64,000 nucleotides of DNA from Bryobacterales bacterium (GCA_965205445.1 CBDBHC010000002.1:306463-370462); one strand, 5' to 3'. Positions 18,139-43,994 are shown, counted from the stretch's first letter. The notes: generated by a model not told the origin, from the sequence alone. A program made the numbers and translations.

Positions 18139-18147
18139 GCTGTGAGC

Positions 18148-18837: not shown

Positions 18838-18870
18838 TTCAATCGAACCGGCTGCTAGACGGAATAACTT

Positions 18871-18890
18871 CACGGCGGGTTCAAGCCGTG
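18871..18890 (+). terminator. Possible intrinsic terminator hairpin after the two-component operon
   Basis: A perfect 6-bp stem CACGGC/GCCGTG with an 8-nt loop lies 34 nt after the stop codon. The following T-tract is weak (TTGAT). Confidence 0.3.
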
Positions 18891-19869
18891 TTGATCGCGT
18901 TAACTTGTTGTGGTTTCGGGGTTTCGCCTGTTCCGGCATAGGTCTCAACTTGTCACTGTTATGGAAACAGTCTGCATCGCATCGACGCCGAGCCGGTCGA
19001 ACGCCCGGCGCTGCAGCTCGGTCGGCTTGGTGGCGATGGTGATGGCGGTCATTGCCTGAGTCGGCAGGTGTTGGGATTCAGACTAATTCGTGAGAATCGG
19101 GTGATTTTGCAACGCTACAATTTCGCCAGTGGATCGGTTGGAAAGCGGAATAGTCCGAGGTTCCTGACGAGGGAGTTGCAGTTTTATCAGTAGGCTTCAC
19201 AATCCACCAGGTGTCCTGCTCTCTCTTGCAGAAGCGAATCTGTTTGAGAAAACTCCGCCAGCGGAGCAGAAATATTCTGAGAATTCTCAATCGGAATAAT
19301 GTGAGCGCCAACACCGAGTCTCCAGAAGCCTGAACCGCGCCAACTTACGCTTCGACCTCAGCAGGTTGGAGCCGAAGTGATCTTGCCGTCGATGGATCAC
19401 ATCTCGAATTCCGAGGTCGCCTCATGCCTCAATCTCAAGCCCCTCCATTCAACTGCAGAGGGGTGATGGTCGAAACCATAGAGCCCGAGTCTGCAATTGT
19501 TGCTTGGAAACCCAGGATTTTCATTTGGGCCATCCTTTTGGCAGCCTGTCGGGCTTACGGGCGCAGAGCGTCGCCGAGTGCGGTAGGGCGAGATCGCGCC
19601 GGAGTTCCGAGCGAGCCGGGGAATTCGCAATGGAACCGTCCCAGAGCTCGTGTGGTCCCGGGCGATCGCCGAGCCGGCCGCGCTTCCTCGGGTCGCAAGC
19701 TCCGAGCCATTCCGCCCTCGCAACGGGTTCTCGGCTGGCGAAGGGGCGGGCGCTAGCAAATGAAGGCGGACACTTCAAAATTGCTCAGTCCGGACACTAC
19801 AACTCTGACGTAACAGACTGGTTGGACTGGCCGACTGTATTGATAAGATTGGTCGTTTCCTTGATCGCC

Positions 19870-20436
19870 ATGATGGGGCTGCGGGACTGGCTTGACGAGT
19901 GCGTTTTGAAGTACGCCTTTCCCCTGTGTTGCCGGCTGCGAGCGGCGGCCATTCTGGCGGCGCTTGCCGTTCCGACTGCGGCGGAAGCGGCCGAATTGGA
20001 CATCCGCATTCTCGGCGGCGATGGGATCGGATTGGAGGACACTCCGCCCGAGGCGTGGCTCGCGGGTGTGGCCTTGGGCATCGAGACGGGAAGGCGGCTG
20101 CGCGTCAGTCTCGAGTTCGTGCACGGCCAGATCTACGGGTGGGACTACTACGAGCGCCGGAGGATTCTGATCACCCCCGTTTTCGAGTACAGATTCTGGC
20201 CGGAACGGCGCGTCCAGCCGTATCTGGGCGGCGGGGTCGGGCTCGCTCTGGGATTCAATCAGTGGCCCACCGGCGAGAACGAGGAGTTGGAGTGGGAATG
20301 GGGTCCCGGAATCACGGTGACGTGGGGCGGCGGCGTACGACTGTTCCTGACAGAACGCCTGTTCATCGCGCCCGATATACGGATGGGCTTCTACCCGTTT
20401 CTCCAGTCCACGGTTGGCATCGGATACCGGTTCTGA
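19870..20436 (+). CDS. Small outer-membrane beta-barrel protein (OmpW/porin-like)
   Basis: A signal-like 'RLRAAAILAALAVPTAAEA' is present, and the sequence alternates in an amphipathic pattern. The C-terminal 'STVGIGYRF' ends in aromatic-x-Phe, as is typical of OMP beta-signals. The start within ORF 19504..20436 is uncertain. Confidence 0.55.
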   Translation: MMGLRDWLDECVLKYAFPLCCRLRAAAILAALAVPTAAEAAELDIRILGGDGIGLEDTPPEAWLAGVALGIETGRRLRVSLEFVHGQIYGWDYYERRRILITPVFEYRFWPERRVQPYLGGGVGLALGFNQWPTGENEELEWEWGPGITVTWGGGVRLFLTERLFIAPDIRMGFYPFLQSTVGIGYRF

Positions 20437-20442
20437 CGAGCA

Positions 20443-21114
20443 ATGCGCGTTCGCTGGGCACCTCTCGCGCTTCTAGTGGCGGCGATGGCGCCGGCGCAGC
20501 AAACCGAGCCTCGCCTCGAACTCTACGGCCTGTCCGGATTCTATAGCACGGGCACCCGCTGGGCCCCCTTCCAGCCGCAGGCCGGGGCGGGAGTGCTGGT
20601 TCCCCTCGGCCGGGACTGGGCGGTGCTGGTCGACGCGACCGCGGACACCCGGCAGACCGATCTGATCAAGTTGCATGCGGACAGCTACCGCCGCGAGTTC
20701 TACGAGCGGAACCCCGAGGCCGTGGACGACGACGTGCGGCTGCGACGATATGCCACCCTCCGACCCTCGCTCGTTTGGATGTTAAGGCAGCACCGTTTCT
20801 CGGTCTATGTGGGCGCGGGGGTGGGTTTCGAGTGGTACCACGCCCGGAGCCGCTTCCGCGAGGTTTACCATGCCCACGACGACAGCGGTTTCCTCTACGA
20901 GGATGCCGAGGAAACCGTCCCGGTCCTCGTACGCGACGAGCGGCATACGGAGTGGGATTTCTGGGGCCGCACCACAGTCCTGATCGCCCGGTTCGGCGTC
21001 ATCACAGACCTGACACCCCGCATCACCGTCCGGGCGGGCTATTCCTGCCTCATGGACGACCCCGACAATTCGCTGGCCGGGGCGGTCGAGTTCGGGGTGG
21101 GGTTCCGCTTCTAG
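20443..21114 (+). CDS. Small outer-membrane beta-barrel protein
   Basis: The signal peptide is 'MRVRWAPLALLVAAMAPAQQ' and the C-terminal beta-signal is 'AVEFGVGFRF'. The gene starts 6 nt downstream of the previous OMP gene. Confidence 0.62.
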   Translation: MRVRWAPLALLVAAMAPAQQTEPRLELYGLSGFYSTGTRWAPFQPQAGAGVLVPLGRDWAVLVDATADTRQTDLIKLHADSYRREFYERNPEAVDDDVRLRRYATLRPSLVWMLRQHRFSVYVGAGVGFEWYHARSRFREVYHAHDDSGFLYEDAEETVPVLVRDERHTEWDFWGRTTVLIARFGVITDLTPRITVRAGYSCLMDDPDNSLAGAVEFGVGFRF

Positions 21115-22080
21115 CAAGCTCGGCGGAGGGGCGCGACAGTGATCTGTCGGGGACCCAGAGGATCTCCGGCCGCCGGTCGAAGATCACTGCCATTCTCTGG
21201 CGAGCGGTCTGACGCGTCCCTCGGCTGTATCGAGTTGAGGATCCTACTATGGGTGAGTCGCGGTGTGAGCGTGGCAGGGCAGCGCGCGGATAATGGTGCT
21301 TGACGCGCGCTGCAATCCTACCCGCATGCCGCGTTCGGTCCTTCCCGCCGGCACGCTGACCCTATTCGTGCTCAGCTGGCCAGCGGCGAGAGGGGTCGTC
21401 ACCGGCTTCGTCGCCGACGAGGCCTAGATGCGCTCCGGCAAGGGCGCCGCGCCACACTGCGCCAGGCGCTGCATCGCGACCGGCTCCACTGCGGTACTGC
21501 TAGCCCGGACCGGGAAGGTCAACCGCGTCGACAACCAGGAACGTATCTGCTCGCTAGCGGGGTCGGGACTAAGCGCACATTGACCGGGGAACGCTCGTCG
21601 GAACGCCCTGTACAGCGCCCTTGAACGCCATTTTTTGTGGGCTTGAAGGCTTCGTGAATTGCCTCGATTTGCGACAAAGCAACTGTCAACTTCCAGCGCG
21701 GTCCGTTGCCGAAGTAACAGTTCGGGATAGGGCGGCCATACGGGATGCGGCGCAGGCAAGAGGCCATTGCCCACGAACCGCACCTCATGGGTGCACTCGT
21801 ACCGAGACGCGTGCACTCCGGAGGTTTGTGCATGGCAGAACCAACCATGTGTCGTTCGGTTTCCTGCCATCGGAAACCGCTATCCTTGCACCCGGGGAGC
21901 GTCACCTCAGCGGCTGCTGCGCACTGTTCCGGGAGGTGGAGAGGCGGTCGCCGTCAATGGGCTTTAGACTGAAACTATCTCTGGATTGGGCGATTGCGGA
22001 CGGTGACCCAAGTGAATCAGACGTCCTAGCAGCGGACACCTGCAAAGCAGTAAAAACAAGGTTTGAGGAGAGGAACTACC

Positions 22081-22689
22081 ATGATCAAAGCGCGAATTCT
22101 AGTTACAACGCTGTTGTGCTTCGGGATCTCCTTCAGTCAGGAGACTAACGTGACTGACAACGATGGAGCGCCGGAACTCCTATTCGGGGGAATCGAGGCG
22201 CTCCGGGCGGAGATTGGCCTGAACGAAAGGCAGCTCCAGAGGCTGAGGGAAATCGATTTCGCGCGCGAGGACGCGCTCTTTCCCTACGCTCAAGAGACGT
22301 TCGAGAAGGAATGGGCCTTACGGCGCGAATTGCGCGGCGAACAACCCAACGAGCAAGTGCTCCGGATGATCGGCGAGGATCTGGAACGGATCCATCGCGA
22401 GATCGAGCGGGTGAATTCCGAGTATCGGGTGGCAGCGCGCGCACTCCTGAGTTCTCACCAGAACGCCGCCTTGGATCGACTTGCGAGGGCCTTCGAGTCG
22501 GTGCAAGCTGCCCAGGAAGCCATTCGGGTCAATCTCATCGAACCGCCGCCAGGCTTCCCGATTGGTCTGTTGCCCTTCGGTCCCTTCGGTCTCGGCGGCT
22601 TCGGCCTGTTCGGCGGGCTCTTTGGGTTCCTTGCCGAGCAGCCCAGCACCTTGGAAACGGCCATGGAAAGGATCGGTGAAGGCCGCTAG
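22081..22689 (+). CDS. Periplasmic Spy/CpxP-like (LTXXQ-type) helical protein with a Gly/Phe/Pro-rich tail
   Basis: ATG at 22081 follows GAGGAGAGG. The signal peptide is 'MIKARILVTTLLCFGISFSQE'. Helical 'LNERQLQRLREI' and 'LSSHQNAALDRL' repeats are present. The tail reads 'PPPGFPIGLLPFGPFGLGGFGLFGGLFGF'. Confidence 0.55.
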   Translation: MIKARILVTTLLCFGISFSQETNVTDNDGAPELLFGGIEALRAEIGLNERQLQRLREIDFAREDALFPYAQETFEKEWALRRELRGEQPNEQVLRMIGEDLERIHREIERVNSEYRVAARALLSSHQNAALDRLARAFESVQAAQEAIRVNLIEPPPGFPIGLLPFGPFGLGGFGLFGGLFGFLAEQPSTLETAMERIGEGR

Positions 22690-22814
22690 GCGCTCCGCTG
22701 GCGCGAATTCCGCGGAATCGGCCATCGATTCGGCAGGCCGGCTACTGCTCGGGAGGATGCACCCTCATGGAAGGGATTGATCCCGGTCGCGAGCGACACT
22801 CTCCCGGGGCAGGC

Positions 22815-25652
22815 ATGCGGGACTTCACAAGGAATCCTTGGGTGCTCGGCGCCAGCCGATTGGTCACAGGCTTCGATTGGTCCGTCAGGCGATTTGGAGC
22901 GAGCAGCCGGCAGGCGGTTGATCGACCGGTTCCCTCTGCGCCATCAGTGATTGCCGGTCTGGCAGCCATGCTTTGCATTCCCGGCCTCGCGGCGCAATGC
23001 CTGGAGGTGAGAGTCCTTGACCCGGCTTCGACTCCAGTGCCCACCGCATTCGTCTCGACCGGCAGCAGGGAGATTCCGGTCGGCAGCGACGGAGTCGTGT
23101 TGATCTGCGACTTGGGCGACGGGCCGCACTCCCTGCTGATCACGGCGCCTGGATTCAATGCCGTGCAACTGACGGTCGATGGGCCGCCGGGAAGTGTGGA
23201 GGTCGTACTGGAAATCGAGACGCTGACGCAGGACTTGGTGGTCGTTGGAAGTCGCGCCGAAGCCAGGGCGGTCACGGAATCGATCGTCCCTGTCGACCTC
23301 CTTCCCGCTTCCGAGTTCGCTGAGCAGGGCGATCCGGACGTCCTCAACCAGCTCCGAAACGTCGTGCCGTCGTTCAACGTGAACGTTCAGCCGATCAGCG
23401 GCGGCGCGATGATCGTCCGCCCGGCGAACCTGCGCAACCTCGCACCGGACCATGTTCTGGTGCTGGTCAACGGAAAGCGTCGCCACCGGGCCGCACTGAT
23501 TGCCTGGCACGGCAACGGCGTATCGGACGGATCACAGGGCCCGGACATCTCGCCGATTCCTTCGATCGCTCTGCGACAGGTCGAGGTCCTCCGCGACGGC
23601 GCGTCCGCCCAGTATGGATCCGACGCCATTGCAGGAGTAATGAACTTCACGCTCAAGGACAGCCCGAGAGGCGGCTCCTTCGAGATTCGCACCGGTCAGT
23701 TCTACGAGGGCGACGGAAACCGCCTGGTGGTGGCCGGCAACGTCGGACTGCCGCTGGGCGAGGGCGGGTTTGCCAATCTTAGCCTCGAATACGGCAATGC
23801 AGAACCGACCAGCCGCAGCGTCCAGCGCGACGACGCGGCCGCACTGATCGCTGCCGGCAACCAGCACGTCCGCACTCCAGTCGTCCAGGTCTGGGGCTCG
23901 CCGGAGTTGAAGGACGACGTGAAGTTCTTCGGCAACTTCGGCAAGCTCCTCGGCGAATCGACCCAGGCCTACGGGCACACGAGCTATTCGAGCCGGAAGG
24001 CAACTGGCGGGTTCTTTTTCCGGAATCCGAATACCAGGGCCGGCGTGTACAGTATTGACCGCGGCAGGACGCTCCTGGTGGGCGACGCGCTCGATGCGCA
24101 AGATGGCATCTTCGACGGCTCGGCGAACTGCCCCGAGGTCCCGATCGTTGACCATGTGCCGAACGAAGCCGGGCTCGCCCGTGTGCTCGCTGACCCCAAT
24201 TGCTTCACGTTCCGGGAACTCTATCCAGGCGGCTTCACGCCGCAATTCGGCGGCTATTACACCGACAGCTCGCTCGTTGGCGGACTGCGAGGCCAGTTTG
24301 CCAGCGGGATCACATGGGACGCGAGCGTCGGGCTGGGATCGAGCGAAGTTGACTTTTTCATCTTTGACACGGTCAATGCGTCACTCGGCCCGGAGTCTCC
24401 GACGGCGTTCAGGCCGGGAATCTACCGCCAGGAAGAGTTCACCCTCAACCTCGACTTCGCCTACGCCGCAAGTGAAGTGATTCACCTGGCCGCGGGCGGG
24501 GAGTTCCGGAATGAGGAATTCACGATCGTGCAGGGCGATCAGCCCTCCTGGGAGCTCGGGCCATACCTTCGTCAGGGATTCAGTGCGGGATCGAACGGGT
24601 TCGCCGGCTTCAGCCCGCTCGCGGCTGGTAGCTGGGACCGGCCCAACGGCGCCGTGTATGGCGATATCGAGATCTCGGATGCACTGGACAGGTATACCCT
24701 TGACGGCGCGATCCGCGCCGAGCGGTTCGCTGGGTTCGGTGGAACGGTCAACGGCAAGATCGCGGGTCGCGTCGAGCTGGGCAGGGGGCTCGCGTTGCGG
24801 ACCAGCTGGAGCACCGGGTTCCGTGCGCCGACGCCCGGGCAGCAGAATGCCTACAACCTCTCATCGCAATGGGATCCGGATCTGATGGACCTGGTCAACG
24901 TCGGCACGATCCCGTCGACCACCGCGGTCGCGGCTCTCCGGGGCGGCAAGGCTCTCGAACCGGAGACGTCCGTCAACTTCACCGTCGGCGCAGTGGCGCA
25001 GGCCGGTGCGCTGTCGCTGACGTCTGACTATTTCCGCATCGCAATTAGCGACCGGCTGGCTCTGGCCAGCGATTTCGTCTTGACGACAGACGAGGTGCGT
25101 GACCTCCTTGCCGAGGGGGTGACCAGCGCGAGGAACCTGAATGAATTCCGGTTTTTCACGAACGACTTCGACACGCTGACGCAAGGAATCGACATTGTGG
25201 CCACGCTGGTTCCGGCACCGCAGACAGAGGTCACGTTTCTCTTCAACCGAACGGACACCACGGTCGTCCAATTCAACCCGGAGATCGTGTCCGCTCTTCG
25301 CATCAAGCAGCTCCAGGAGAGTCTCCCGAAGACCCGTTGGAATGCGGCCTTGAGCCGGGAGTTCGGGCGCTTCAGCGTGCTTGCCCGCGTGAGCTACTAC
25401 GGCGGGTGGTTCGACGACGACGACAACCAGAACTACACAGGCAAGCATCTAGCGGACTTCGAATTCTCATTCAAGCTTCGTCCCGACTTGAAGCTCGCCG
25501 CAGGCGCACAGAACGCGTTCAACACGTTCACCGACCGGAGCAGGCTCGGGTCTGCGGGGCCGGGAAACCTCTACAGCCAGTTCTCTCCGTACGGATTCGA
25601 CGGGGGTTACTACTACCTTCGCCTCAACTACAGCTGGGGCACGACCTTTTGA
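22815..25652 (+). CDS. TonB-dependent receptor with an N-terminal carboxypeptidase-regulatory-like domain
   Basis: 'LEVRVLDPASTPVPTAFV' marks the CarbopepD_reg-like domain. The plug motifs are 'LRNLAPDHVLVLVNGKR' and 'IALRQVEVLRDGASAQYGSDAIAGVMNF'. The C-terminal 'YYLRLNYSWGTTF' ends in a terminal Phe. The start is uncertain (the ORF is open from 22767). Confidence 0.9.
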   Translation: MRDFTRNPWVLGASRLVTGFDWSVRRFGASSRQAVDRPVPSAPSVIAGLAAMLCIPGLAAQCLEVRVLDPASTPVPTAFVSTGSREIPVGSDGVVLICDLGDGPHSLLITAPGFNAVQLTVDGPPGSVEVVLEIETLTQDLVVVGSRAEARAVTESIVPVDLLPASEFAEQGDPDVLNQLRNVVPSFNVNVQPISGGAMIVRPANLRNLAPDHVLVLVNGKRRHRAALIAWHGNGVSDGSQGPDISPIPSIALRQVEVLRDGASAQYGSDAIAGVMNFTLKDSPRGGSFEIRTGQFYEGDGNRLVVAGNVGLPLGEGGFANLSLEYGNAEPTSRSVQRDDAAALIAAGNQHVRTPVVQVWGSPELKDDVKFFGNFGKLLGESTQAYGHTSYSSRKATGGFFFRNPNTRAGVYSIDRGRTLLVGDALDAQDGIFDGSANCPEVPIVDHVPNEAGLARVLADPNCFTFRELYPGGFTPQFGGYYTDSSLVGGLRGQFASGITWDASVGLGSSEVDFFIFDTVNASLGPESPTAFRPGIYRQEEFTLNLDFAYAASEVIHLAAGGEFRNEEFTIVQGDQPSWELGPYLRQGFSAGSNGFAGFSPLAAGSWDRPNGAVYGDIEISDALDRYTLDGAIRAERFAGFGGTVNGKIAGRVELGRGLALRTSWSTGFRAPTPGQQNAYNLSSQWDPDLMDLVNVGTIPSTTAVAALRGGKALEPETSVNFTVGAVAQAGALSLTSDYFRIAISDRLALASDFVLTTDEVRDLLAEGVTSARNLNEFRFFTNDFDTLTQGIDIVATLVPAPQTEVTFLFNRTDTTVVQFNPEIVSALRIKQLQESLPKTRWNAALSREFGRFSVLARVSYYGGWFDDDDNQNYTGKHLADFEFSFKLRPDLKLAAGAQNAFNTFTDRSRLGSAGPGNLYSQFSPYGFDGGYYYLRLNYSWGTTF

Positions 25653-25899
25653 TCCGAAAGGGTGGCGTGCTGGCAAGCGTAGGGGCGCAGGTGAGCTTCC
25701 GCGTCTTCATCGAACGCGGTTCGATTCCGGCACATTCGATTCCACCCTCGTGGGCCCAACCCCGGTCTTCTCGGCCGGGATGCCGGCATGCACGAAGCGG
25801 ATTCTCGGACTCATCAGACCAAAGGAACGTCGCTCGGAGCTTCCCACGAGGCCGGCGACGGCGAAGATTCAATCTGCGTTGGCAACATCCGAATTCGAG

Positions 25900-26397
25900 T
25901 TACCAGGAGATTCTCACCCCTTGAGAGCCGTCGGGGAGACTCTCGCTTGGCGAATTCCACGATTCGCGCCATTCCCGTGCAGACGCTCGTGATTTCTCGT
26001 CAGCCTTTACCCACCATGCATCGCATTCCGGTCGGACGCAGCTTGCCTTCCGAATCTCCCCGGGCGCGCCGCGCCGCAAGCACCCGAACGAACTCATTGC
26101 CTCAACTAAGAAGACGGCCCCCTCTTGAATTAGCGTAGACCTCGTCGTGCGCACGTCCAGCTCGCCGGACTTCTCCTTAATCCAGCGCAGACGCCACTCT
26201 ACGTGTTCGGGGTCCGCAGGGCGTTCGTCCTGTTCCGCTCTCAACGTCAGGAACAATGCGCGGATCAGTCCGCCCCAGCCCGCCCGTCCGGCCCAGAGGC
26301 GCATTGCGTACTCATCGTTCATAGCCTCCATTAGCAGCACTACCTCCCTGCCGCAGTGGTTCTCCAGCTGGCCGTAATTCCTCCAATCGTACGTGTC
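25900..26397 (-). CDS. Hypothetical protein, or the distal part of a TGA-interrupted 324-codon frame
   Basis: This ORF is in the same reading frame as 26398..26871 and begins directly after that ORF's TGA. Possible independent starts are GTG at 26340 and ATG at 26331. Third-codon positions are mostly G/C by eye. No family was recognised. Confidence 0.35.
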   Translation of the reverse strand, partial: DTYDWRNYGQLENHCGREVVLLMEAMNDEYAMRLWAGRAGWGGLIRALFLTLRAEQDERPADPEHVEWRLRWIKEKSGELDVRTTRSTLIQEGAVFLVEAMSSFGCLRRGAPGEIRKASCVRPECDAWWVKADEKSRASAREWRESWNSPSESLPDGSQGVRISW

Positions 26398-26871
26398 TCA
26401 ATCGGGTCCACCGGTCCTGCTGCGAATACCCTGCGTCCACTGCCCTGGCGATACCATCCTTGGAGCACGTTTCCCGCTCGGCTCTGGCCAGTTCTTGGCA
26501 AGGCGCACCGACTGCGAGCCCCGACACAGTCTGCATCGGCAGCCGACCGGCCGCAAGCGTGCGTCTCCTACGGGATCACCCTTGCCGCCGCACAGTTCAC
26601 ACGGCTTGGCACTGAGGGCCCGCGCTGCCATGGGGAGCCCTGCGGATGAATCCGGAGGGTCGGCAACCTCGAAAAGCAGACGACCCGCTTGAACGGTTAC
26701 GGCCCGAAGGTCCCGTTCGTCCTCGTCAAGGCACCTCGCTTCCCCGGTAAGGTTCGAAGCGGGTTCCACGATCGTGGCCCATCCCGGAAGAACCGAAGCG
26801 TCGTGTGGCTGGTCGGTGGTGACTGCCGATGGTCCCATGGCCGCAGCATAGGGCCGAGCCGGCATCTGCAA
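26398..26871 (-). CDS. Hypothetical protein with a Cys-rich segment, divergent from the primase-helicase gene
   Basis: A 157-aa ORF starts 115 bp from the divergent gene at 26987. It contains 'KPCELCGGKGDPVGDARLRPVGCRCRLC', a possible zinc ribbon. No family was recognised. Confidence 0.35.
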   Translation of the reverse strand: MQMPARPYAAAMGPSAVTTDQPHDASVLPGWATIVEPASNLTGEARCLDEDERDLRAVTVQAGRLLFEVADPPDSSAGLPMAARALSAKPCELCGGKGDPVGDARLRPVGCRCRLCRGSQSVRLAKNWPEPSGKRAPRMVSPGQWTQGIRSRTGGPD

Positions 26872-26986
26872 GCTTCAGAGCAGAGAGGTTTGGTGCGTGA
26901 CACGAGGCAACTCTCATCCCAAGTGTCGTCTGCCTTACAATCCACAGTGCTCAGTAGCTGGGCTGTAGACCGGAGAGCTGACTCGG

Positions 26987-29440
26987 ATGGCCGGTTCGAC
27001 ATCAGAAAGAAACAAGGAGGCCCTCCGCGACGCCATTTCACGGAAGGCTGCGGAACTGAGGGTCATAGACCAACGCCGGGTATCCGCCCAACACGAGTTG
27101 CGGCGCCTCAATGAGGAACTTGAGAGCTTGAAGGATTGGACTGCAGGGTCCCTGAACCAAAGGGCAGCCCGCGACGGGGATGTCCCGTCGACACCGGCTC
27201 AAAAGATCGCATTGTTCCGCTCCTTGTTTCGCGGCCGAGAGGACGTGTACCCCAAGTTCTGGACCAACATCGGCACCGGGCGCAGTGGCTACGCGCCAGC
27301 ATGCGAGAACGAATGGGTCCGAGGGATCTGCGAAAAGCCCCGCGTTAAGTGCGGCGATTGCCGGCATCAGCGGTTCCTGCCTGTCCAGGACCGCGTATTG
27401 CTGGATCACTTCCAGGGAAGGCACGTTGTCGGCGTCTATCCGCTTCTGGCTGACGACACGTGCTGGCTTCTGGCTGCCGACTTTGACAAGCAGGATTGGA
27501 TGGGAGATGTCGCCGCATTCCGTGAGGTGTGCGACAGCGAGGGACTGCCCGTCGCGGTCGAGCGCTCACGCTCGGGTGAGGGAGCGCATGCCTGGTTTTT
27601 CTTCGACCGGGCCCTGCCGGCCGTGCAGGCTCGCCAGATGGGCTGCTTCCTGATTACAAAGGCCATGCGAAATCGCCATAATCTCGACGTAGGGTCATAT
27701 GACCGGCTGTTCCCTAGCCAGGACACGCTGCCCCGCGGCGGCTTCGGCAACTTGATAGCGTTGCCGCTACAGCGCGAAGCGCGGTTGCGAGGCAACACGG
27801 TATTCGTTGACGGTGAATTCCGAGCGCATCCGGATCAGTGGGCATACATTGCCGGAGTGCGGCGAATCCCGGCTGCGACTGTCGAGCAGGTCGCATCGGA
27901 AGCCTTTGGCAGAGGATGCGTGCTGAGTGTCCGTCGATACGGTCGCAACCAGCACGGATCCCCTGCAATGCATCTGGCGGAATCAAGTGCAGCGACTCGC
28001 GATGGCGCGCATCAGCAGATTCCGCTTCCAGAGCAAGTCGAAGCCACGCTCGCGAACGGCCTTCGTGTCGACAAGGAGGGCCTTCCGTCCCCAGTCCTCA
28101 GTGCCCTCAAAGGAGTTGCTTCCTTTCAGAATCCGGAATTCTACAAGAGGCAGAGGATGCGGCTCTCCACGGCCCTGACACCGCGCGTGATCGCGTGTGC
28201 CGAAGATCTTGAGGCCGAAATGGTGCTGCCACGCGGGTGTGCCGAAGACGTCTCAGCCCTGCTGCGCTCGATGGGCACGAGACTCGAAGTCAAGGATCTC
28301 CGAGAGCGGGGTCGAGAACTCGATGTCGAGTTCCAAGGCACCCTGCGAGGGTTCCAGGAAGACGCGGTTGTCGCTCTCCTGGCGAACGACACTGGCGTAC
28401 TGGTCGCCCCACCGGGAACCGGCAAGACGGTGATGGGCATCGCGTTGATGGCTCGACGGGGTCGCAGCACCCTGGTGCTTGTCCACCGTCAACCGCTCTT
28501 GGATCAATGGAAAGCGCACCTTGCCGCGTTTCTTGACGTCGATCCGAAATCGATCGGATGCCTCGGCGGCGGCAAGCGCTCGCTGACGGGCCTCATTGAT
28601 GTGGCGATGATTCAGAGCCTGGCGCGCGGGAACCAGGCTGCCGAACTCATGGACCGCTACGGTCATGTAGTCGTCGACGAGTGCCATCACGTTCCCGCGT
28701 TTTCGTTCGAGCGAGTCGTCGCAAGGTCCCAGGCGCGATACCTGACTGGACTCACGGCATCGCCCCGCCGTCGTGACGGGTTGCATCCGATCCTCGAGAT
28801 GCAGCTGGGACCGGTGCGATTCGGGGCTGACGACGGCTTGGTGTCGAGCCGGCCCCCCTTCGCACGTCGGCTGATTGTCCGAGAGACAGGCTTCGAGCTA
28901 CCTAGTTCGGAGGCCGATCCTCCGATTCAGCGGATCTACAAGTCGCTTGCCTGCGACGAGCACCGCAACTCGATGATCTTGAACGACATCATCGGCTCTC
29001 TCGACGAGGGACGCTCCCCCATCGTTTTGACGGAACGAAGGGACCATCTCGAATTCCTTGCCGAGCGGCTTACGGGATTCGCAAAGAACCTGATCGTGCT
29101 TCGTGGCGGGGTCTCGGCGAAGCGGCGTGGCACAATGCTCCGGGCGTTGAAGGCCGTTCCAGATGGCGAGGAGCGTCTCGTCCTGGCGACGGGCCGCTAT
29201 ATCGGCGAGGGCTTCGACGATCCGAGGCTTGACACGCTTTTCCTTACGATGCCCGTGTCGTGGCGGGGCACGATCGTGCAGTATGCAGGTCGCCTGCATC
29301 GCATGCATCCCGGAAAACAGGAAGTTCGGATTTTCGATTACGCAGACCGAAGGGTTCCGGTCCTCGCCCGCATGTTCGCCAGGCGCGTCGCCGGTTATCG
29401 ATCACTCGGATACAAGGACATCGGCGGTCCGGCACTTTGA
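26987..29440 (+). CDS. Fusion protein: N-terminal coiled coil + archaeo-eukaryotic primase (AEP/PrimPol)-like domain + SF2 DEAD/DEAH (DECH) helicase
   Basis: AEP motifs are 'WLLAADFDKQDW' (DxD), 'SGEGAHAWFFF' (sxH) and 'YDRLFPSQDTLPRGGFGNLIALPL'. There is a Cys cluster 'CENEWVRGICEKPRVKCGDC'. Helicase motifs are I 'APPGTGKT', II 'VVVDECHH', III 'LTGLTASP', V 'LATGRYIGEGFD' and VI 'QYAGRLHR'. Confidence 0.85.
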   Translation: MAGSTSERNKEALRDAISRKAAELRVIDQRRVSAQHELRRLNEELESLKDWTAGSLNQRAARDGDVPSTPAQKIALFRSLFRGREDVYPKFWTNIGTGRSGYAPACENEWVRGICEKPRVKCGDCRHQRFLPVQDRVLLDHFQGRHVVGVYPLLADDTCWLLAADFDKQDWMGDVAAFREVCDSEGLPVAVERSRSGEGAHAWFFFDRALPAVQARQMGCFLITKAMRNRHNLDVGSYDRLFPSQDTLPRGGFGNLIALPLQREARLRGNTVFVDGEFRAHPDQWAYIAGVRRIPAATVEQVASEAFGRGCVLSVRRYGRNQHGSPAMHLAESSAATRDGAHQQIPLPEQVEATLANGLRVDKEGLPSPVLSALKGVASFQNPEFYKRQRMRLSTALTPRVIACAEDLEAEMVLPRGCAEDVSALLRSMGTRLEVKDLRERGRELDVEFQGTLRGFQEDAVVALLANDTGVLVAPPGTGKTVMGIALMARRGRSTLVLVHRQPLLDQWKAHLAAFLDVDPKSIGCLGGGKRSLTGLIDVAMIQSLARGNQAAELMDRYGHVVVDECHHVPAFSFERVVARSQARYLTGLTASPRRRDGLHPILEMQLGPVRFGADDGLVSSRPPFARRLIVRETGFELPSSEADPPIQRIYKSLACDEHRNSMILNDIIGSLDEGRSPIVLTERRDHLEFLAERLTGFAKNLIVLRGGVSAKRRGTMLRALKAVPDGEERLVLATGRYIGEGFDDPRLDTLFLTMPVSWRGTIVQYAGRLHRMHPGKQEVRIFDYADRRVPVLARMFARRVAGYRSLGYKDIGGPAL

Positions 29441-29879
29441 TGCATGAAATGGCCAATGACCGGAGAATCCCTTCCAGAGACGCCCAGTTGGAGCGAAGCT
29501 CTGCGGACGCTCCGCCTTCGAGCGAATCGCCCAGTCGATCGAATCCTTGTGCCTTGTCTTCTTGAAGGCCTCCCACGGTCTGGACTCCGTTGGAGGTTCG
29601 GAGATGCTCGAGATCGAGTCAGCCCCAGCGGACACCGAGACAAAGCAACTCGATCGACCGTCTTCTCCGAACACAGCGCAGATTCCATGAAGGGGCTTTG
29701 GCATGCGCGTTATTGCCGGAACTTCAACTCGTCACTGATGCGTGGCCCTCGACGTGCCCCCCGCGAAGGCAGCGGCCTTCCCGGCTTCCGCTCGCTCTTC
29801 CGGTGCGTGTCCGCAACGCAGCGTTCCCCTATCCACCGGGACGAGCGGCCCAGAGCGAAGTTGCTTAGCCGAAGAATCC

Positions 29880-29949
29880 GAGTCACAATCACGCGAATAG
29901 AGATGATAATAAGAATAAATCTCCATTATAGTAAGAATATTGAAGAAAA
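29880..29949 (+). promoter_or_regulatory. AT-rich putative promoter/leader region of the two-gene module
   Basis: About 70 bp of strikingly AT-rich sequence ('GATGATAATAAGAATAAATCTCCATTATAGTAAGAATATTGAAGAAAA') sits in an otherwise GC-rich genome. It includes a TATAGT -10-like hexamer at 29927-29932. A homologous AT-rich block precedes the second copy (about 31905-31943). Confidence 0.3.
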
Positions 29950-30552
29950 ATGATTGCCAATCGCGATAATCCGTGTTTCAATTACAGGGTAATGCCCAGT
30001 TCCAGCTCAGACGACCTGATGCCGACCTACTGGTATCCGGGGCTGGGAAAGTACCACCAAGCTGTCCGGATTCCCGTGACGAGCCCGACTCGATACGTCT
30101 CGTATGAGGCCGCCCTCAATCTCCGTCTGCCGGGCGAGGACACCGGCGACTGGCACGGCGATGTGCCGTTCGTCACGTCAGTTGACAATCCCCGGACACT
30201 AACGCTCGCCGGACCTGGGGGCGTGTCCGACACCACTCCAAGTCTCGGTAGCAAGGGCGTTCGAGACATGGCCCAAGTCCTTGAGGGCCAGTATATCCCT
30301 CCTGGCTGCGGCCCGGTCTGGGTGGCTAATCACTATCGCGCGATTGCGGACTACGTGCTCATTGACACACACGCGTGCTGGTGTGCGAAGCATCCGAGAC
30401 ACGTCCCGGTCTACAACATCAACCAGTGGCTTGAGACTCCTGAGCAGATCGAACATCTGGTCGAGGTGTACCTCAAGCCGCTTCGGAACCAGCTCTCGCC
30501 TGAGGAAAGGGCACTCCACGACGCATGGCTACCGACCGTAGTATTCGGCTGA
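29950..30552 (+). CDS. Uncharacterised 200-aa Cys/Trp/His-rich protein, upstream partner (putative antitoxin/regulator) of the AbiEii-like NTase
   Basis: The ORF has an ATG start and overlaps the downstream NTase gene by 28 nt. A paralogue about 80% identical lies 2015 bp downstream. Conserved blocks are 'WYPGLG', 'TGDWHGD.PFVTSVDNPRTL', 'GCGPVWVANHYRAIADYVL' and 'CWCA...PRHVPV.NINQWL'. No known family was recognised. Confidence 0.75.
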   Translation: MIANRDNPCFNYRVMPSSSSDDLMPTYWYPGLGKYHQAVRIPVTSPTRYVSYEAALNLRLPGEDTGDWHGDVPFVTSVDNPRTLTLAGPGGVSDTTPSLGSKGVRDMAQVLEGQYIPPGCGPVWVANHYRAIADYVLIDTHACWCAKHPRHVPVYNINQWLETPEQIEHLVEVYLKPLRNQLSPEERALHDAWLPTVVFG

Positions 30553-31655
30553 CGCCAGAACAAGCACTCCACGAGCGCGTGATGAGAGCGGTCGCTCTCC
30601 GCATGTACGACACCCCGTTCGTGCTGAAGGGAGGGACTGCACTAGCGCTCCTGTACGGGCTGGACCGTCATTCTGTCGACCTCGACTTCGATTGTGGTAG
30701 CGCCAAGCGCTTGTCCATCGAGAACCACGTTCGCGATGGCCTGCGACAGGCCAATGTACCGATGTCGGCATTCAACCGAGGCCGTCCAATGTGGAAGGGA
30801 CGGCGGTTCAGGGTCCGATACATCAATCCGGACAACCACAAACAACGACTCCTGACGGTGGAATTGAGTTTCAGGACTCAGCCACGAGCTCACGACGTCG
30901 AAGTCGTGGATGGCATTCGCACCTACAAGATTCCGACCTTGTTTGATCAGAAGTTGAATGCCGCTGCTGACCGGACGAAGGCACGGGACCTGTATGATCT
31001 CGGGTTCTTGGCGGAATCCTATGGAGATAGCTTTTCGACCGAGCAGATCTCCAGAGCTGACGAATTCAATCGAGACTGGGAAGTCCTGGCAGGTCGGTAT
31101 CGCCGAGCATTCCAAACGGATGAGCTACTAAAGGACATTACCACTGCCGACGATCGGGCGCTGTTGTTCAGGATCGCGATTCTCGAACAGATGCACCGCC
31201 GAGGGCAGGTGGTCGCAGAGCAAGCCGTTCCTGCTGCGAGGTCGCTAGCGGACGAACTTGCCCTGCACAAAATCTGGCTCGAATCGAATGGGCGGACTGG
31301 TTTCCGTGCGGACCTCAGCGACAGGGGGTTTGCTGGGTCCGTCTTGTGTGGCGTCAACTTCGAGAGAGCGGACCTACGACGGGCCGACTTTTCGGGTGCG
31401 GACCTACGCAACGCGAACTTTCGGAACAGCGACCTGACCGAGGCAGTGTTCGACAAGACCGACCTAAGGGGGGCCGACTTCTCCGGCGCAGACCTCACGG
31501 ATGTGTCGTTGCGCAGTAGCATGCTCGGACCCACCACCAAGGGCTTCGCTGAGGCGCTCATGAAAGTTGCCACGTCTGATCGATCTCGCTACATCCCCTA
31601 CAGGCGAGCCCCAGCTCAGGCGGAACTCGAGAGGGACTTCGGCCCGTCACGGTAG
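30525..31655 (+). CDS. AbiEii/AbiGii (DUF1814, MenT-like) nucleotidyltransferase toxin-family protein fused to a C-terminal pentapeptide-repeat domain
   Basis: NTase motifs are 'FVLKGGTALALLY', 'RHSVDLDFD' and 'DRTKARDLYDLGFL'. The C-terminal residues ~258-332 (nt ~31296-31520) are tandem A(D/N)LXX pentapeptides: 'ADLRRADFSGADLRNANFRNSDLTEAVFDKTDLRGADFSGADLTD'. Confidence 0.85.
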   Translation: MATDRSIRLTPEQALHERVMRAVALRMYDTPFVLKGGTALALLYGLDRHSVDLDFDCGSAKRLSIENHVRDGLRQANVPMSAFNRGRPMWKGRRFRVRYINPDNHKQRLLTVELSFRTQPRAHDVEVVDGIRTYKIPTLFDQKLNAAADRTKARDLYDLGFLAESYGDSFSTEQISRADEFNRDWEVLAGRYRRAFQTDELLKDITTADDRALLFRIAILEQMHRRGQVVAEQAVPAARSLADELALHKIWLESNGRTGFRADLSDRGFAGSVLCGVNFERADLRRADFSGADLRNANFRNSDLTEAVFDKTDLRGADFSGADLTDVSLRSSMLGPTTKGFAEALMKVATSDRSRYIPYRRAPAQAELERDFGPSR

Positions 31656-31943
31656 TCCCGAGCACAGCGGGCTGCCAACACGCTGAGAATGCGCCCGAAA
31701 TTCTCCTGAACCGCTAGACTGGTTCGCCCCGTGGTCTGATTTCGCCGCACCGCACTCCGCGGAAGCACTCAACCATGCGGCTAGACCACATTTCGGTTTT
31801 GTGTCGCGTTCCGGCTCGGTCTGAATTCTTGCTCGATGTGCCTAGACCGTGCGGTCCCGGACGAACTTGTTTAGCCGAGTAATCTGATCCGCAGGGCAAC
31901 GTTCAAGCAGTATGGCAATGAAAGTACGATAAATAAAAGATTA

Positions 31944-32567
31944 TTGTACAAATATCGAAGCAAAACGATTGCTAATCAGGATGGCCCGTGCTTGAATGAT
32001 GAAGTCGTGCCAGAGCCCAGTTCAGACGATCTCCTGCCGACCTTTTGGTATCCCGGGTTGGGAGAGCACCACCGAGCTGTTCGGATTCCTGTAACGACGC
32101 CGACCCGCCATCTGTCCTACCTGACGGCCCTCAACCTTCGGCTGCCCGGGGAGGAAACCGGAGACTGGCACGGCGATCTGCCGTTCGTAACATCCGTTGA
32201 TAATCCGCGCACTCTACGACCCGCCGGTCCGGGCGGCTGGTCGGATACGACTCCTAGCCTCGGGAGCAAGGGCGTGCGAAACATGGCGCATCTCCTTGAG
32301 GGAAAGTATATTCCTCACGGCTGTGGGCCCGTCTGGGTGGCGAACCATTACCGCGCCATAGCGGACTATGTTCTTGTTGACACTCAAGGGTGCTGGTGCG
32401 CTCAGTTTCCGAGGCACGTTCCGGTCTGCAACATCAATCAGTGGCTGGACACTCCTGAGCAGGTTGAACAATTGGTGGAGGAGTACCTCAAGCCGCTTAG
32501 ACAACAGCTCTCGCCCGACGAAAAGGAGCTCCACGACGCATGGCTTCCGACCGTCGTATTCGGCTGA
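31944..32567 (+). CDS. Paralogue of the 200-aa uncharacterised partner protein (second copy)
   Basis: It is about 80% identical in amino acids to 29950..30552 over the whole length. The ATG of copy 1 is ACG here, so the start would be TTG at 31944 or another non-ATG codon. The same 28-nt overlap with the downstream ORF is present. Confidence 0.65.
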   Translation: MYKYRSKTIANQDGPCLNDEVVPEPSSDDLLPTFWYPGLGEHHRAVRIPVTTPTRHLSYLTALNLRLPGEETGDWHGDLPFVTSVDNPRTLRPAGPGGWSDTTPSLGSKGVRNMAHLLEGKYIPHGCGPVWVANHYRAIADYVLVDTQGCWCAQFPRHVPVCNINQWLDTPEQVEQLVEEYLKPLRQQLSPDEKELHDAWLPTVVFG

Positions 32568-32986
32568 CGCCGGAACAAGCACTTCACGAACGCGTGATGA
32601 GAGCGGTCGCGCTTCGGATGCAGAACCTTCCTTACGTGCTGAAGGGAGGCACTGCACTTGCGCTCCTATACCAGCTGGACCGTCACTCCGTCGACCTCGA
32701 CTTCGATTGTGGCAGCGGCAAGCGGGGCTCGATCGAGAACCACATTCGAGATGGCCTGCAGGACGCCGAGGTCTCGATGTCCTACTGCAAGCCGGAGCGC
32801 CGCACGTGGAAGGGCCAACGATTCGAGGCACATTACATAGATCCTGGCAGCAGGGAAGACCGACTCTTGAGGGTGGAATTGAGTTTCAGGACAGAGCCAC
32901 GAGCAGACGACGTCGTGATCGTGGATAGGATTCGCGGCCGAAATTGTCAGCGGCGACCCGCCGTGGATCGATCCGTCGGTCCTTAG
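32540..32986 (+). pseudogene. Truncated AbiEii-like NTase (second copy), lacking the KxRDxYD motif region and the pentapeptide domain
   Basis: The first ~132 aa align with 30525..31655 ('LKGGTALALLY', 'RHSVDLDFD' retained). Homology stops at about 32936, and the frame runs into unrelated sequence with a stop at 32984-32986. Confidence 0.65.
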
Positions 32987-33199
32987 CGCCGAACGTTTCG
33001 GCGACCAGTACGCAACCGATCGAATCTTGAGGGCTCGCTGTGAGGAGATCTATTCGCATCACTATCACGAGGTCTACTGACGTCGGGCCAAGTTGGTTGG
33101 CCGGACGGCGCTGGCTCTCAGACCCGTCCTAACAGCCAAGCTCCGGTTCAAGAGACCCAGATGGCCGGAACGCCCCCCAACAGGTGTGGTGGAACGAAT

Positions 33200-33550
33200 C
33201 TACCTTGCGCTCTCAGGCACAGCTTCCGGGACCAGCGTCAAGGCATTCTTGAGGCGCTCGTCGCCTGGGCTTGAGCCCTTGTGGTGTCCCTGCCGCCCGG
33301 CGACTGGGTCGTGGAATGGAGTGATGAGGGCCTTCTGGCTTCCGGCTTCCGCCATGTAGTACTCGTCTTGCGGAATCGGGAAGGCGTGCATGCTGTTGAT
33401 CCAGAAAAAGCAGCCAACGGTGCGACGGCCATCGGCCCCCACGCGGGTGCCGGAGTGCTGACGAACTCCACGAAGCCTTTCGGAAGGATGTGCTCGCCCC
33501 CCAGCACCGTCTTGGAGATACATTCCCGTCATCGACCGGATTCGATTCAC
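33200..33550 (-). CDS. Hypothetical protein downstream of purH (weak call)
   Basis: This 116-aa ORF lies on the same strand as purH. The segment 'VGCFFWINSMHAFPIPQDEYYMAEAGSQKALITPFHDP' looks protein-like. No family was recognised, and competing ORFs exist in other frames. Confidence 0.3.
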   Translation of the reverse strand: MNRIRSMTGMYLQDGAGGRAHPSERLRGVRQHSGTRVGADGRRTVGCFFWINSMHAFPIPQDEYYMAEAGSQKALITPFHDPVAGRQGHHKGSSPGDERLKNALTLVPEAVPESAR

Positions 33551-33682
33551 CGCGACGGGCCGGGATCAAGCGGGCGATTCGGAAAACGGCCTGAACGATG
33601 ATTCGGGCGCACCCAGTGGCCTGCGGTTGGCCTGCACAATCACCTCGGAGCAGGGTGTCAAGAGACTCCGGTTCGGCCTGGC

Positions 33683-35233
33683 CTAATGTCGGAAATGGCG
33701 CACTCCCGTACAGACCATCGCAAGTCCCAACCGGTCAGCAGCTTCGATGACCTCGCCGTCCCGCCGGGATCCGCCCGGCTGGATCACGGCAGTCGCGCCG
33801 TGTTTCGCGAGTTCTTCGATCCCGTCTGCAAATGGAAAGAAAGCGTCGGATGCCACGACGCTGCCCTCCAGCGGCAGCACCGCTTTCATTGCTCCCAGCC
33901 GTGCCGAGTCGACACGGCTCATCTGACCCGCCCCCACGCCGACCGACTGACCGTTCTTGGCGTAAAGGATGGCGTTCGACTTGACGTGCTTCACCACTTT
34001 CCAGGCAAACCGTAGCGAGTCGGCCTCCTCTGCAGTCGGTTCGCGGCTTGTGACGACGTCGAATCGCTCGGGACTCGTCTCGGCCCGGTCCTCGGATTGG
34101 ATGAGGTAGCCGCCTGAAACGCTCTTCAGAACTGTACCCGGGGCGCATCGGGCGATCTCCAGCAGGCGGAGGTTCTTCTTCCTCGTGAGGATGTCGAGCG
34201 CGTCCGCCGTGAACCCCGGGGCGGCGATTGCCTCGACGAAGAGCTTGGACATCTCGGTTGCGGTTTCCCCGTCTACGGATTCACTTGTCGCGATGACCGA
34301 ACCGAATGCCGAGACGGGATCGCACTCCAGTGCCTTGCGATAGGCTTCCGCGAGAGTCGTTCCCTCCGCGCAGCCGCAAGGGTTGGTGTGCTTGATGATC
34401 GCCACGGCCGGCCGGTCGAACTCCAGGGCGAGCTGCCACGAGGCGTCCAGGTCCACGAGGTTGTTGTAGGAAAGCGCCTTGCCGTGAAGCTGTCGAGCAC
34501 CGCCCACGCCCTGGCGGCCGTCGGTGTAGAGGGCTGCCTCCTGGTGGGGGTTCTCGCCGTACCGGAGCACTGTGGCGCGAGGGATCCGGAGATCGAGGTG
34601 TGCTGGCAACGTACCTTCTGCAATGGTTGCGGGTGCCTGCCCCACAGCGAGGAAAGCAAGCGTTCCGCTGATCGCGCGGTCGTACGCAGCGGTTGCCTCG
34701 AATGCCTTCTGGGCCAGCCTCCAGCACGTGTCCTGAGAGAGCTCGCCCTGTTCGGCGAGCTCTCTCGCGATCACCGGGTAGTCGGACGGGTTCGTCACGA
34801 CCGCCACGTCGCCAAAGTTCTTCGCGGCGGCTCGGATCAAGGACGGTCCGCCGATGTCGATGTTCTCGATCAGTTCCCCGAACGTTGCTCCCTCACGGGC
34901 AGCAGTGGCTTCGAAGGCGTACAGGTTCACGACGACCATGTCGACCGGAGCGATCGCGTGCCGCTCCAGGGCGCTCATGTGCTCGGCATTGGATCGGACA
35001 GCGAGGATTCCGCCCGCTATTCGTGGATGCAGCGTCTTGACACGACCGTCCAGCATTTCCGGGAAACCGGTGACATCGGACACGTCCTCGACCTCCAGCC
35101 CCGCCTCGCGGAGGACTCGGGCCGTGCCCCCCGTCGAAATGAGGGACACCCCGCAAGAGGCTAATTGGAGAGCGAAATCCGCTAGGCCTGACTTGTCGGT
35201 AACGCTGAGCAGCGCACGCCGGATCCTCGGCAT
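33683..35233 (-). CDS. purH: Bifunctional AICAR formyltransferase / IMP cyclohydrolase
   Basis: The N-terminal MGS-like 'ALLSVTDKSGLADFALQL...LISTGGTARVL...VTGFPEMLDGRVKTLHP' and the C-terminal 'VIQPGGSRRDGEVIEAADRLGLAMVCTGVRHFRH' are canonical PurH. Confidence 0.96.
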   Translation of the reverse strand: MPRIRRALLSVTDKSGLADFALQLASCGVSLISTGGTARVLREAGLEVEDVSDVTGFPEMLDGRVKTLHPRIAGGILAVRSNAEHMSALERHAIAPVDMVVVNLYAFEATAAREGATFGELIENIDIGGPSLIRAAAKNFGDVAVVTNPSDYPVIARELAEQGELSQDTCWRLAQKAFEATAAYDRAISGTLAFLAVGQAPATIAEGTLPAHLDLRIPRATVLRYGENPHQEAALYTDGRQGVGGARQLHGKALSYNNLVDLDASWQLALEFDRPAVAIIKHTNPCGCAEGTTLAEAYRKALECDPVSAFGSVIATSESVDGETATEMSKLFVEAIAAPGFTADALDILTRKKNLRLLEIARCAPGTVLKSVSGGYLIQSEDRAETSPERFDVVTSREPTAEEADSLRFAWKVVKHVKSNAILYAKNGQSVGVGAGQMSRVDSARLGAMKAVLPLEGSVVASDAFFPFADGIEELAKHGATAVIQPGGSRRDGEVIEAADRLGLAMVCTGVRHFRH

Positions 35234-35322
35234 AAACGACCATTCTACTGGCCATGGGGCCAGTTGGTTCGGCTCTCTCCAGCAGCGGTGCCGGGGGAGC
35301 CTCGAGTGCGTGGATCGCGCCC

Positions 35323-38541
<3,219 letters not shown>

Positions 38542-38580
38542 GGTCAGCTCAATCCGGTAGCAGGTACCGCACGAGGGGTC

Positions 38581-39711: not shown

Positions 39712-39729
39712 CTGTCGATGAATCTCGGC

Positions 39730-41505: not shown

Positions 41506-41567
41506 GGCGAGAGCTGGGTTGCGGGCGAATCCCGCCCGCGCATGCCAATCAATCGGGAGGAACACTC

Positions 41568-43841: not shown

Positions 43842-43869
43842 TACCGGGCATTCCCGCATGCCCGCCATG

Positions 43870-43906: not shown

Positions 43907-43994
43907 GCGGCGGTCCAGTTTGCGGCTCGCACCCCAGCATGCCGGGTCAATTGAGGCAGTCGATCGACTTGCGATCTGTGGGACCTTCCTACCG

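Follow-up and report, generated by a model that had tools for sequence, protein, structure and literature searches.

A decaying module with defence-type genes in a probable variable hotspot beside purH of a Bryobacterales chromosome

How did a block of lower-G+C genes without a recombinase come to lie between a TonB-dependent receptor gene and purH in the chromosome of a Bryobacterales bacterium (Acidobacteriota)? The block spans positions 25653–33199 of a stretch of 64,000 nucleotides (GCA_965205445.1 CBDBHC010000002.1:306463-370462), which was analysed at its full length and is called the window below. It holds a double zinc-ribbon gene, a gene for an AEP-TOTE primase-polymerase fused to a helicase (hereafter AEP-helicase), a tandemly repeated pair of AbiE antitoxin and toxin genes, and the end of an oxidoreductase gene. 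A reading made from this sequence alone (the sequence-only reading) had proposed a defence-island hotspot remodelled by recombination rather than a classical integrative element. Comparison with related loci revealed a lower-G+C module of zinc-ribbon gene, AEP-TOTE/SF2 (superfamily 2) helicase and tandem AbiE that is present, absent, partial or replaced among strains and species, and that is decaying in the window, where a nonsense mutation has hit the zinc-ribbon gene and an illegitimate deletion the second toxin gene. The region is very probably the cargo of a variable chromosomal hotspot lying between carA-carB-purH and a two-component/208-aa-gene block, in which a long-resident module is subject to turnover and decay.

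The comparison covered eight loci, with the AEP-helicase and purH as handles: the window, L018, L019 (L019-L022 were alike), L023, L024, L025, L109 and L110. Eight different architectures were found at the purH site in these eight loci. On one side purH was present in all of them, with carA-carB beyond it wherever the contig reached that far; the carA-carB-purH block was kept in six, and the two loci at contig edges retained purH and, in L018, also part of carB. The opposite side carried a histidine kinase/response regulator pair and/or the 208-aa gene in the window, L018, L019, L023, L024, L025 and L110. The most informative relative was the conspecific L023 (purH 99.6% identical at the amino acid level), in which the order was the 208-aa gene, the TonB receptor, the equivalent of window positions 25653-26081, 932 bp with a 5'-truncated DAO-family gene, window sequence from 32932 onward, and purH. 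By blastn, L023 matched the window at 21694-26081 (96.8% nucleotide identity) and at 32932-45233 (99.1%), with no match between. A segment of 6850 bp (26082..32931) is thus present or absent at the strain level and is replaced in L023 by the 932 bp, which supply the greater part of the DAO-family gene fragment. The TonB receptor lies approximately 2.1 kb from purH in L023, where the zinc-ribbon gene survives as its 3' end. An adjacency of receptor and purH without the insert, which the sequence-only reading had proposed to look for in relatives, exists within the species itself and favours that reading.

More distant relatives differed further. L018 (purH 91%) had the gene order of the window, with both island-flank junctions collinear over 9.7 kb and 4.2 kb, but its second AbiEii toxin gene was intact, and VapB/PIN-like genes and a 196-aa gene took the place of the DAO remnant. 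L019-L022 (purH 89%) carried the TonB receptor, MerR, VIT/VWA, zinc-ribbon, AEP-helicase, one AbiE pair, a Y1 transposase, PQQ and DUF3386 genes and the remnant of a second AbiEii before purH. In L024 (purH 88%) the 208-aa gene was followed by AbiEi, a disrupted AbiEii, a PIN pair and purH, without receptor or AEP-helicase, whereas L025 (purH 85%) had an empty site, with the homolog of the 208-aa gene approximately 290 bp from purH. MerR-VIT adjoined purH in L109 (purH 82%), and IS1595 and a sulfatase gene adjoined it in L110 (purH 80%). Since the module stands in the same order in two other species with purH identities of 89–91%, it is an old resident and not a recent import. The VapBC-like pair in L018 and L024 suggests a still earlier cargo next to purH.

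Some of the cargo genes in the window were found damaged. The zinc-ribbon gene (25900..26871, minus strand), reported by the sequence-only reading as a split Cys-rich open reading frame (ORF), is indeed split, the cause being a single in-frame TGA at 26398-26400 and not a frameshift: both halves share one reading frame of 323 codons. The codon is TGG in the close relative L018, and most homologs have tryptophan at that residue. In addition, only two of four Cys remain in its C-terminal CxxC...CxxC motif, a loss of zinc ligands, and the window copy is a pseudogene inactivated by a TGG>TGA nonsense mutation. The family is rare, with only 52 representative clusters among 1.84 billion proteins; its members are typically 290–310 aa long with two CxxC...CxxC motifs, and no match to it was found in Pfam, PADLOC or PHROG.

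At the other end, the second AbiEii gene (32540..32934, plus strand) is truncated past residue 132, and its ORF continues out of frame in DAO-derived sequence to 32986. The product is 72% identical to residues 1-132 of the first copy, with no similarity beyond. In L018 the orthologous toxin is intact (334 aa, pentapeptide domain kept), and homology with L018 stops at 32934. The truncated gene is joined, via a 3-bp TCG microhomology at 32932-32934, to the remnant of a DAO-family FAD oxidoreductase gene of which the last 49 codons survive (32931..33077, plus strand). The join is the scar of an illegitimate deletion, which took away the 3' end of the second toxin gene together with whatever lay beyond it and most of the DAO gene. 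That the truncation is the derived state follows from the intact second AbiEii of L018, which is followed by the VapB/PIN-like genes, together with the PIN gene that adjoins purH in L024. The second AbiEi is probably an orphan antitoxin left behind after loss of its toxin. The sequence-only reading had assigned all genes of the block to conflict or unknown types, and its account of the gene content stood except for this right-end remnant, which is an oxidoreductase and no conflict gene.

The 305-aa DAO fragment of L023 matched the window over residues 257-305 only (90%, tblastn). Because each of the two, the window and L023, preserves a piece of sequence that is missing from the other, the two strains appear to have undergone overlapping deletions from a fuller ancestor. 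Most simply, that ancestor would have had the zinc-ribbon gene, the AEP-helicase, two AbiE pairs and the DAO gene, and two overlapping deletions followed. Tandem duplication, microhomology junction, nonsense mutation and overlapping deletions in two strains together support the proposal of a hotspot remodelled by recombination.

Base composition set the block apart in part. Its G+C content was 60.2%, against 64.7% in the remaining 56 kb of the window; among 415 windows of equal length placed clear of the block (mean 64.9%, sd 1.4) the minimum was 62.5%, which places 25653–33199 at z ~-3.3 and below all of them, as the visible drop had led the sequence-only reading to expect. Many codons had been noted to end in A or T, and G+C at third codon positions (GC3) was 0.65–0.70 (mean 0.68) in the seven island coding segments compared to a mean of 0.79 in flanking genes (n=29, >=190 aa; p=4.3e-5, one-sided Mann-Whitney). 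Both AT-rich stretches, at 29880-29950 and 31900-31965, proved real, each lying directly upstream of an AbiEi start codon. The claimed lack of integrase, transposase, flanking tRNA and border repeats held as well: ARAGORN found no tRNA or tmRNA across the whole 64 kb; no island ORF matched an integrase, recombinase or transposase family in Pfam, NCBIfam or PADLOC; and the borders yielded no direct repeats beyond chance-level matches of 18–28 nt at 70–80% identity. An Rfam scan of 25–34 kb returned nothing meaningful. The sole long repeat within the island is the tandem AbiE duplication, with a spacing of 2015 bp and approximately 74% nucleotide identity. With no site-specific recombinase in the island ORFs, no tRNA in 64 kb and no border repeats, a classical integrative island, prophage or integrative and conjugative element (ICE) was rejected as a class assignment.

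Several points weigh against reading the region as the cargo of a defence-rich hotspot, and they concern its composition, its function and the data. In the base-composition-normalised tetranucleotide signature the island was not unusual, 16 of 83 other windows being equally or more deviant, so the offset, which confirms the drop seen by the sequence-only reading, is confined to G+C and third codon positions. Low GC3 was also present in orthologs of the island genes from three other species; since it is equally depressed in the relatives, the lower G+C is a stable property of these genes and not a sign of recent import, and it could stem from weak codon selection instead of foreign origin. Defence activity is ascribed to any gene here from family membership, AbiE is the only defence system recognised by the PADLOC models, and the cargo of the compared loci includes non-defence genes (TonB receptor, MerR-VIT/VWA, DAO, sulfatase, PQQ). 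The comparison genomes are all metagenome assemblies, some at ~5x long-read coverage, and small frameshifts in them may be sequencing errors. Finally, turnover of the cargo would proceed by homologous recombination through the conserved flanks and by local duplication and deletion, without a dedicated integrase, a route that is read from the pattern.

Defence-type cargo across the eight loci comprised AbiE, the AEP-TOTE helicase and the VapB/PIN-like genes. As AbiE alone was recognised and non-defence genes share the site, it is a general variable hotspot and not demonstrably a dedicated defence island; across these eight loci, too few for a statistical test, the cargo may be rich in defence genes.

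The compositional points could also fit an ordinary, vertically inherited chromosome in which weakly expressed genes under relaxed codon selection lowered the G+C content and no horizontal island ever existed. The tetranucleotide signature shared with the rest of the window agrees with this, as does the recurrence of the same genes, order and depressed GC3 in two other species, and the divergence of the AEP-helicase (91% and 73% identity in these species) broadly tracks, though it exceeds, that of purH (91% and 89%). Vertical inheritance is nevertheless hard to reconcile with the presence or absence of the segment within a species (L023), with a module that is absent or partial in L024, L025, L109 and L110, with island proteins that diverge much faster than the flanks, or with AEP-helicase homologs at 65–66% identity in completely different contexts, and we consider it improbable. 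An assembly or binning artefact is far more remote still. The source appears to be a metagenome-assembled genome (MAG), and AEP-helicase and AbiEii sequences 100% identical to those of the window are on record from a single 4.09-Mb contig; against this, the gene order was recovered independently in assemblies of other samples (L018, and the four contigs L019-L022), and both flank junctions are collinear with L018.

An eroded integrative element (an integrated plasmid, a satellite or an ICE-like element), with the AEP-helicase as its replication primase-helicase and with integrase and att sites deleted, deserves slightly more credit than vertical inheritance and is still unlikely. Integrated plasmids and satellites typically replicate with AEP primase-polymerases fused to helicases, and toxin–antitoxin modules are common there. 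Transposases occupy the same site in relatives (Y1_Tnp in L019, IS1595 in L110), 3 of 80 metagenomic loci with AEP-helicase homologs have an ORF resembling tyrosine recombinases in the vicinity, and extensive deletion is documented at this locus. The helicase, however, is of the SF2 XPB/Rad25-like type, not the replicative SF3 or DnaB type, and the AEP domain belongs to the family that Pfam defines from TOTE conflict systems. Neither an integrase nor att-like repeats were found in the window, L018 or L019-L022; 2.9 million viral contigs yielded a single weak (45%) homolog of the AEP-helicase; and that gene otherwise stands alone, in chromosomal surroundings that vary. A variable hotspot with a long-resident, decaying module accounts best for these observations taken together.

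The AEP-helicase gene (26987..29440, plus strand) is intact and encodes 817 aa, with the AEP domain at residues 72-301 and the XPB/Rad25-like SF2 helicase at residues ~450-790. It matched PF22548 (AEP-TOTE; E 2e-92) over model positions 1-229 of 230, as well as ResIII, DEAD and Helicase_C, and the PADLOC PrimPol model PDLC01465 (E 1e-86). Its relatives in the PDB are XPBII and the CRISPR-associated PrimPol 7nqd (E 5e-10). The motifs DxD, sGxGxH, Walker A (GTGKT) and DECH are visible in the translation, so that catalytic motifs are present in both halves. At least 8000 homologous clusters were found. In 80 metagenomic loci with homologs at 45–59% identity, not one had an AbiE or zinc-ribbon homolog beside the AEP-helicase, which ruled out the three as one linked system; their linkage is confined to this lineage. 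The homologs at 65–66% identity lay beside IS66 and DUF4143 fragments or approximately 3.7 kb from a type I cas cluster. Judged from these varied contexts, in which it stands as an isolated gene, the AEP-helicase is probably not tied mechanistically to its neighbours in the window, and it is predicted to be a single-protein conflict effector. The literature search returned no paper describing a tested AEP-TOTE helicase.

Among the distant AEP-helicase loci (L026-L105), a small CcbP-like protein (~95–120 aa; Calci_bind_CcbP-like, E 4e-7) was encoded directly downstream in 13 of the 50 that had downstream sequence, and a conserved protein of ~380 aa ('MSEYQYYEF...') then followed in 8. Examples are L077:5943-6299 with L077:7009-8145, and L063:3116-3523 with 3564-4706. 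In one branch of the AEP-helicases these two proteins may form a conserved set of partners; a search of the window for a remnant of the CcbP-like partner found none. The ORF at 29444-29953, directly downstream of the AEP-helicase in the window, was rejected as a gene, its GC3 being 0.56 and its amino acid identity to L018 only 59–65% across a stretch that is ~89% identical in nucleotides.

The first AbiE operon begins with the AT-rich, promoter-like region at 29880..29950 (plus strand), where two sigma-70-like matches lie at 29882-29932. Its antitoxin gene (29950..30552, plus strand) encodes a short form of AbiEi that matched the PADLOC model PDLC02280 (E 1.5e-32); neither a Pfam AbiEi domain nor a PDB sequence match was found. 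The conserved core begins near 29992, and in L018 and L019 the orthologs, 186 aa long, begin at the position that corresponds to residue 15. The toxin gene (30525..31655, plus strand) overlaps the antitoxin gene by 28 bp and is intact. It encodes an AbiEii nucleotidyltransferase (NTase; residues ~10-220, PF08843 above its gathering score, E 1e-22; PADLOC AbiEii, E 3e-46) with a GG...DLDFD motif and, at residues ~260-340, a C-terminal pentapeptide-repeat domain (Pentapeptide, E 1e-20). In the PDB, the N-terminal part was related to 4ok0/4o8s and the C-terminal part to pentapeptide-repeat proteins. Downstream of the second AT-rich region (31900..31965, plus strand), the antitoxin gene of the second copy (31944..32567, plus strand; PADLOC AbiEi, E 1.5e-28) is intact and its product is 79% identical to that of the first. 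In comparison with L018, copy 1 best matched copy 1 and copy 2 best matched copy 2, which makes the duplication older than the split between the window and L018.

The family of AbiEii-pentapeptide fusions comprised roughly 85 listed clusters at >=45% identity, and those among them with a named source came from Bryobacterales only. At least two members can share one chromosome-size contig, which makes this a multi-copy family within genomes. No paper describing such a fusion was found in the literature. A degraded second AbiEii (41–63% identity, in several frames) lies right beside purH at L019:20242-21076, separated from the intact AbiE pair of that locus by the Y1-transposase, PQQ and DUF3386 genes, an arrangement suggesting that the second AbiE copy was interrupted by an insertion or was replaced.

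By analogy with characterised relatives, the intact AbiEi/AbiEii pair may act as a type IV toxin–antitoxin and abortive-infection module, in which the NTase toxin would stall translation by modifying tRNA, as in its MenT relatives; the pair might also stabilise the segment against loss. The AEP-helicase would be a self-contained, nucleic-acid-directed effector, the helicase loading on or unwinding foreign nucleic acid and the AEP domain synthesising or extending a strand. More speculative, and in our view rather doubtful, is the idea that the AbiEii-pentapeptide toxin with its short AbiEi forms a lineage-specific subtype in which a DNA-mimicking repeat gates or tethers the toxin, for example by sensing a phage DNA-binding protein, and that the AEP-TOTE/XPB-helicase is a complete single-gene immune system without TPR-OB and TBP.

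To the left of the module the limits of the variable zone had to be redrawn. The TonB-dependent receptor gene (22767..25652, plus strand; 961 aa, with Plug and TonB_dep_Rec_b-barrel domains) has a host-like composition (GC3 0.78) and had been taken as the left border of the island. It was present in L018, L019 and L023 and absent beside purH in L024, L025, L109 and L110. As the receptor is missing from four of the eight loci, the variable zone begins near 22.7 kb, to the left of the receptor, which is itself variable cargo at deeper divergence and no stable border. Its use as a synteny anchor (one genome per species) had been dropped in favour of purH homologs, since receptor homologs (76–86% identity) had unrelated surroundings in nine other Bryobacterales MAGs. 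In closer relatives the variable interval is instead anchored on the left by the 208-aa gene (22063..22689, plus strand), which has no assigned function and gave only sub-threshold Pfam matches, at best a very weak Metal_resist-like one. In L018, L019, L023 and L024 its homologs sit where the variable zone begins on the left, and in L025 the homolog stands directly beside purH.

Two further features of the receptor were observed. Compared with L018:3067-5950, residues 1-230 were 78% identical and residues 231-961 were 96% identical, with a change of frame between the two blocks in L018; this mosaicism reflects either an intragenic recombination breakpoint or a long-read indel error. In the nine MAGs (L001-L007, L009 and L014; at ~13.9–17 kb in each), the genes that follow the receptor homolog resemble genes at 53.8-58.1 and 62.1-63.3 kb of the window, 30 kb away. 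These are probably paralogous families, and they may point to a substrate-utilisation cluster elsewhere as the setting to which the receptor belongs, and from which it would have moved in this lineage.

A second variable patch was seen at 18861-22040, between a response regulator gene (18142-18837) and the 208-aa gene. The whole patch gave no alignment with L018, and 18861-21693 gave none with the conspecific L023. G+C fell to 0.578 at 19–20 kb, and ORFs of 310 aa (19504-20436) and 223 aa (20443-21114) had no Pfam or PADLOC match. Relatives carry an Oxidored_molyb gene and a 385-aa gene in place of this content.

On the right, purH (33683..35233, minus strand; MGS and AICARFT_IMPCHas domains), with carB and carA beyond, is the conserved anchor. 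The sequence of ~600 bp that separates the purH stop codon from the DAO remnant (33078-33682) was common to the conspecific L023 only, the L018 sequence differing until 160 bp from purH. This interval contains a minus-strand ORF (33200-33550) with a non-coding-like GC3 of 0.53 and, on the purH strand, a terminator-like hairpin at 33437-33412. Further along, a local G+C minimum of 0.569 at 40001-41000 lies between a signal-peptidase-like gene and a DUF3386/TonB-receptor pair; L023 has the same dip at the corresponding position, which marks it as a conserved feature, intergenic or of a divergent promoter, and not as an insertion.

In a phylum that has been little studied (marine or host-associated Bryobacterales), the locus documents an integrase-free variable hotspot set between core genes, and it illustrates how such cargo erodes: a toxin was lost before its antitoxin, deletions occurred via microhomology, and one gene was inactivated by a point mutation. 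The stand-alone AEP-TOTE helicase, the AbiEii-pentapeptide fusion and the rare double zinc-ribbon family are candidates worth experiments. The practical value is modest; no major question is overturned or opened, and this is a fairly ordinary case of a known kind of hotspot.

Among known systems, AbiE is matched by the intact pair at the sequence level. AbiE is a type IV toxin–antitoxin and abortive-infection system, and the mechanism of its DUF1814/MenT NTase toxins has been described (PMC3985639, PMC7450476, PMC11375011). Shared features are the bicistronic operon in which the antitoxin gene comes first and overlaps the toxin gene, the PF08843 NTase with GG...DxD, and matches of both proteins to PADLOC AbiE models. 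Unlike characterised AbiEii and MenT proteins, the toxin found here has a C-terminal pentapeptide-repeat domain of ~100 aa; unlike in known AbiE systems, the antitoxin is short (~186 aa), with no Pfam AbiEi domain and no winged helix-turn-helix recognisable from its sequence, and the pair is tandemly duplicated with a truncated second toxin. TOTE conflict systems (2022, as cited in PMC12458937) are named for TPR, OB, TBP and Effector. The AEP-helicase resembles the TOTE effectors in its full-length, high-scoring PF22548 domain fused to a helicase, but it is a stand-alone effector-type gene and not part of a TOTE operon. Assignment to TOTE was rejected, as the effector domain is present whereas the TPR-OB and TBP components were searched for and not found: no TPR, OB (S1/CSD) or TBP-like protein occurred among the ORFs of 19.5–35.2 kb, and none recurred beside the gene in the 80 homologous loci. 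CRISPR-associated primase-polymerases (CAPP; PDB 7nqd/7nqf, NF040561, PDLC01465) have a homologous AEP domain, which in the window is fused to an XPB-like helicase and not to Cas1 or reverse transcriptase. This class was rejected too, with 82 bits against NCBIfam NF040561 (cut-off 200 bits) and no cas genes or array-like repeats at 24.5–35.5 kb.

As a site, the locus is most like the core defence hotspots cDHS1 and cDHS2 of Pseudomonas aeruginosa (PMC10250203) and the hotspots free of mobile genetic elements in Escherichia coli (PMC10121019). It likewise is a fixed site bounded by core genes, with cargo that varies by genome and includes defence systems, and it likewise has a lower G+C content (here 60.2 vs. 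64.7%) and no obvious mobile-element machinery; in cDHS1, G+C is 58.9% compared to 65.3% for the genome (Johnson et al., NAR 2023, PMC10250203). Unlike those hotspots, the purH site lies in Acidobacteria (Bryobacterales), is represented by eight loci and has small cargo of 0–14 kb mixed with non-defence genes, and this cargo is partly conserved across species and visibly decaying.

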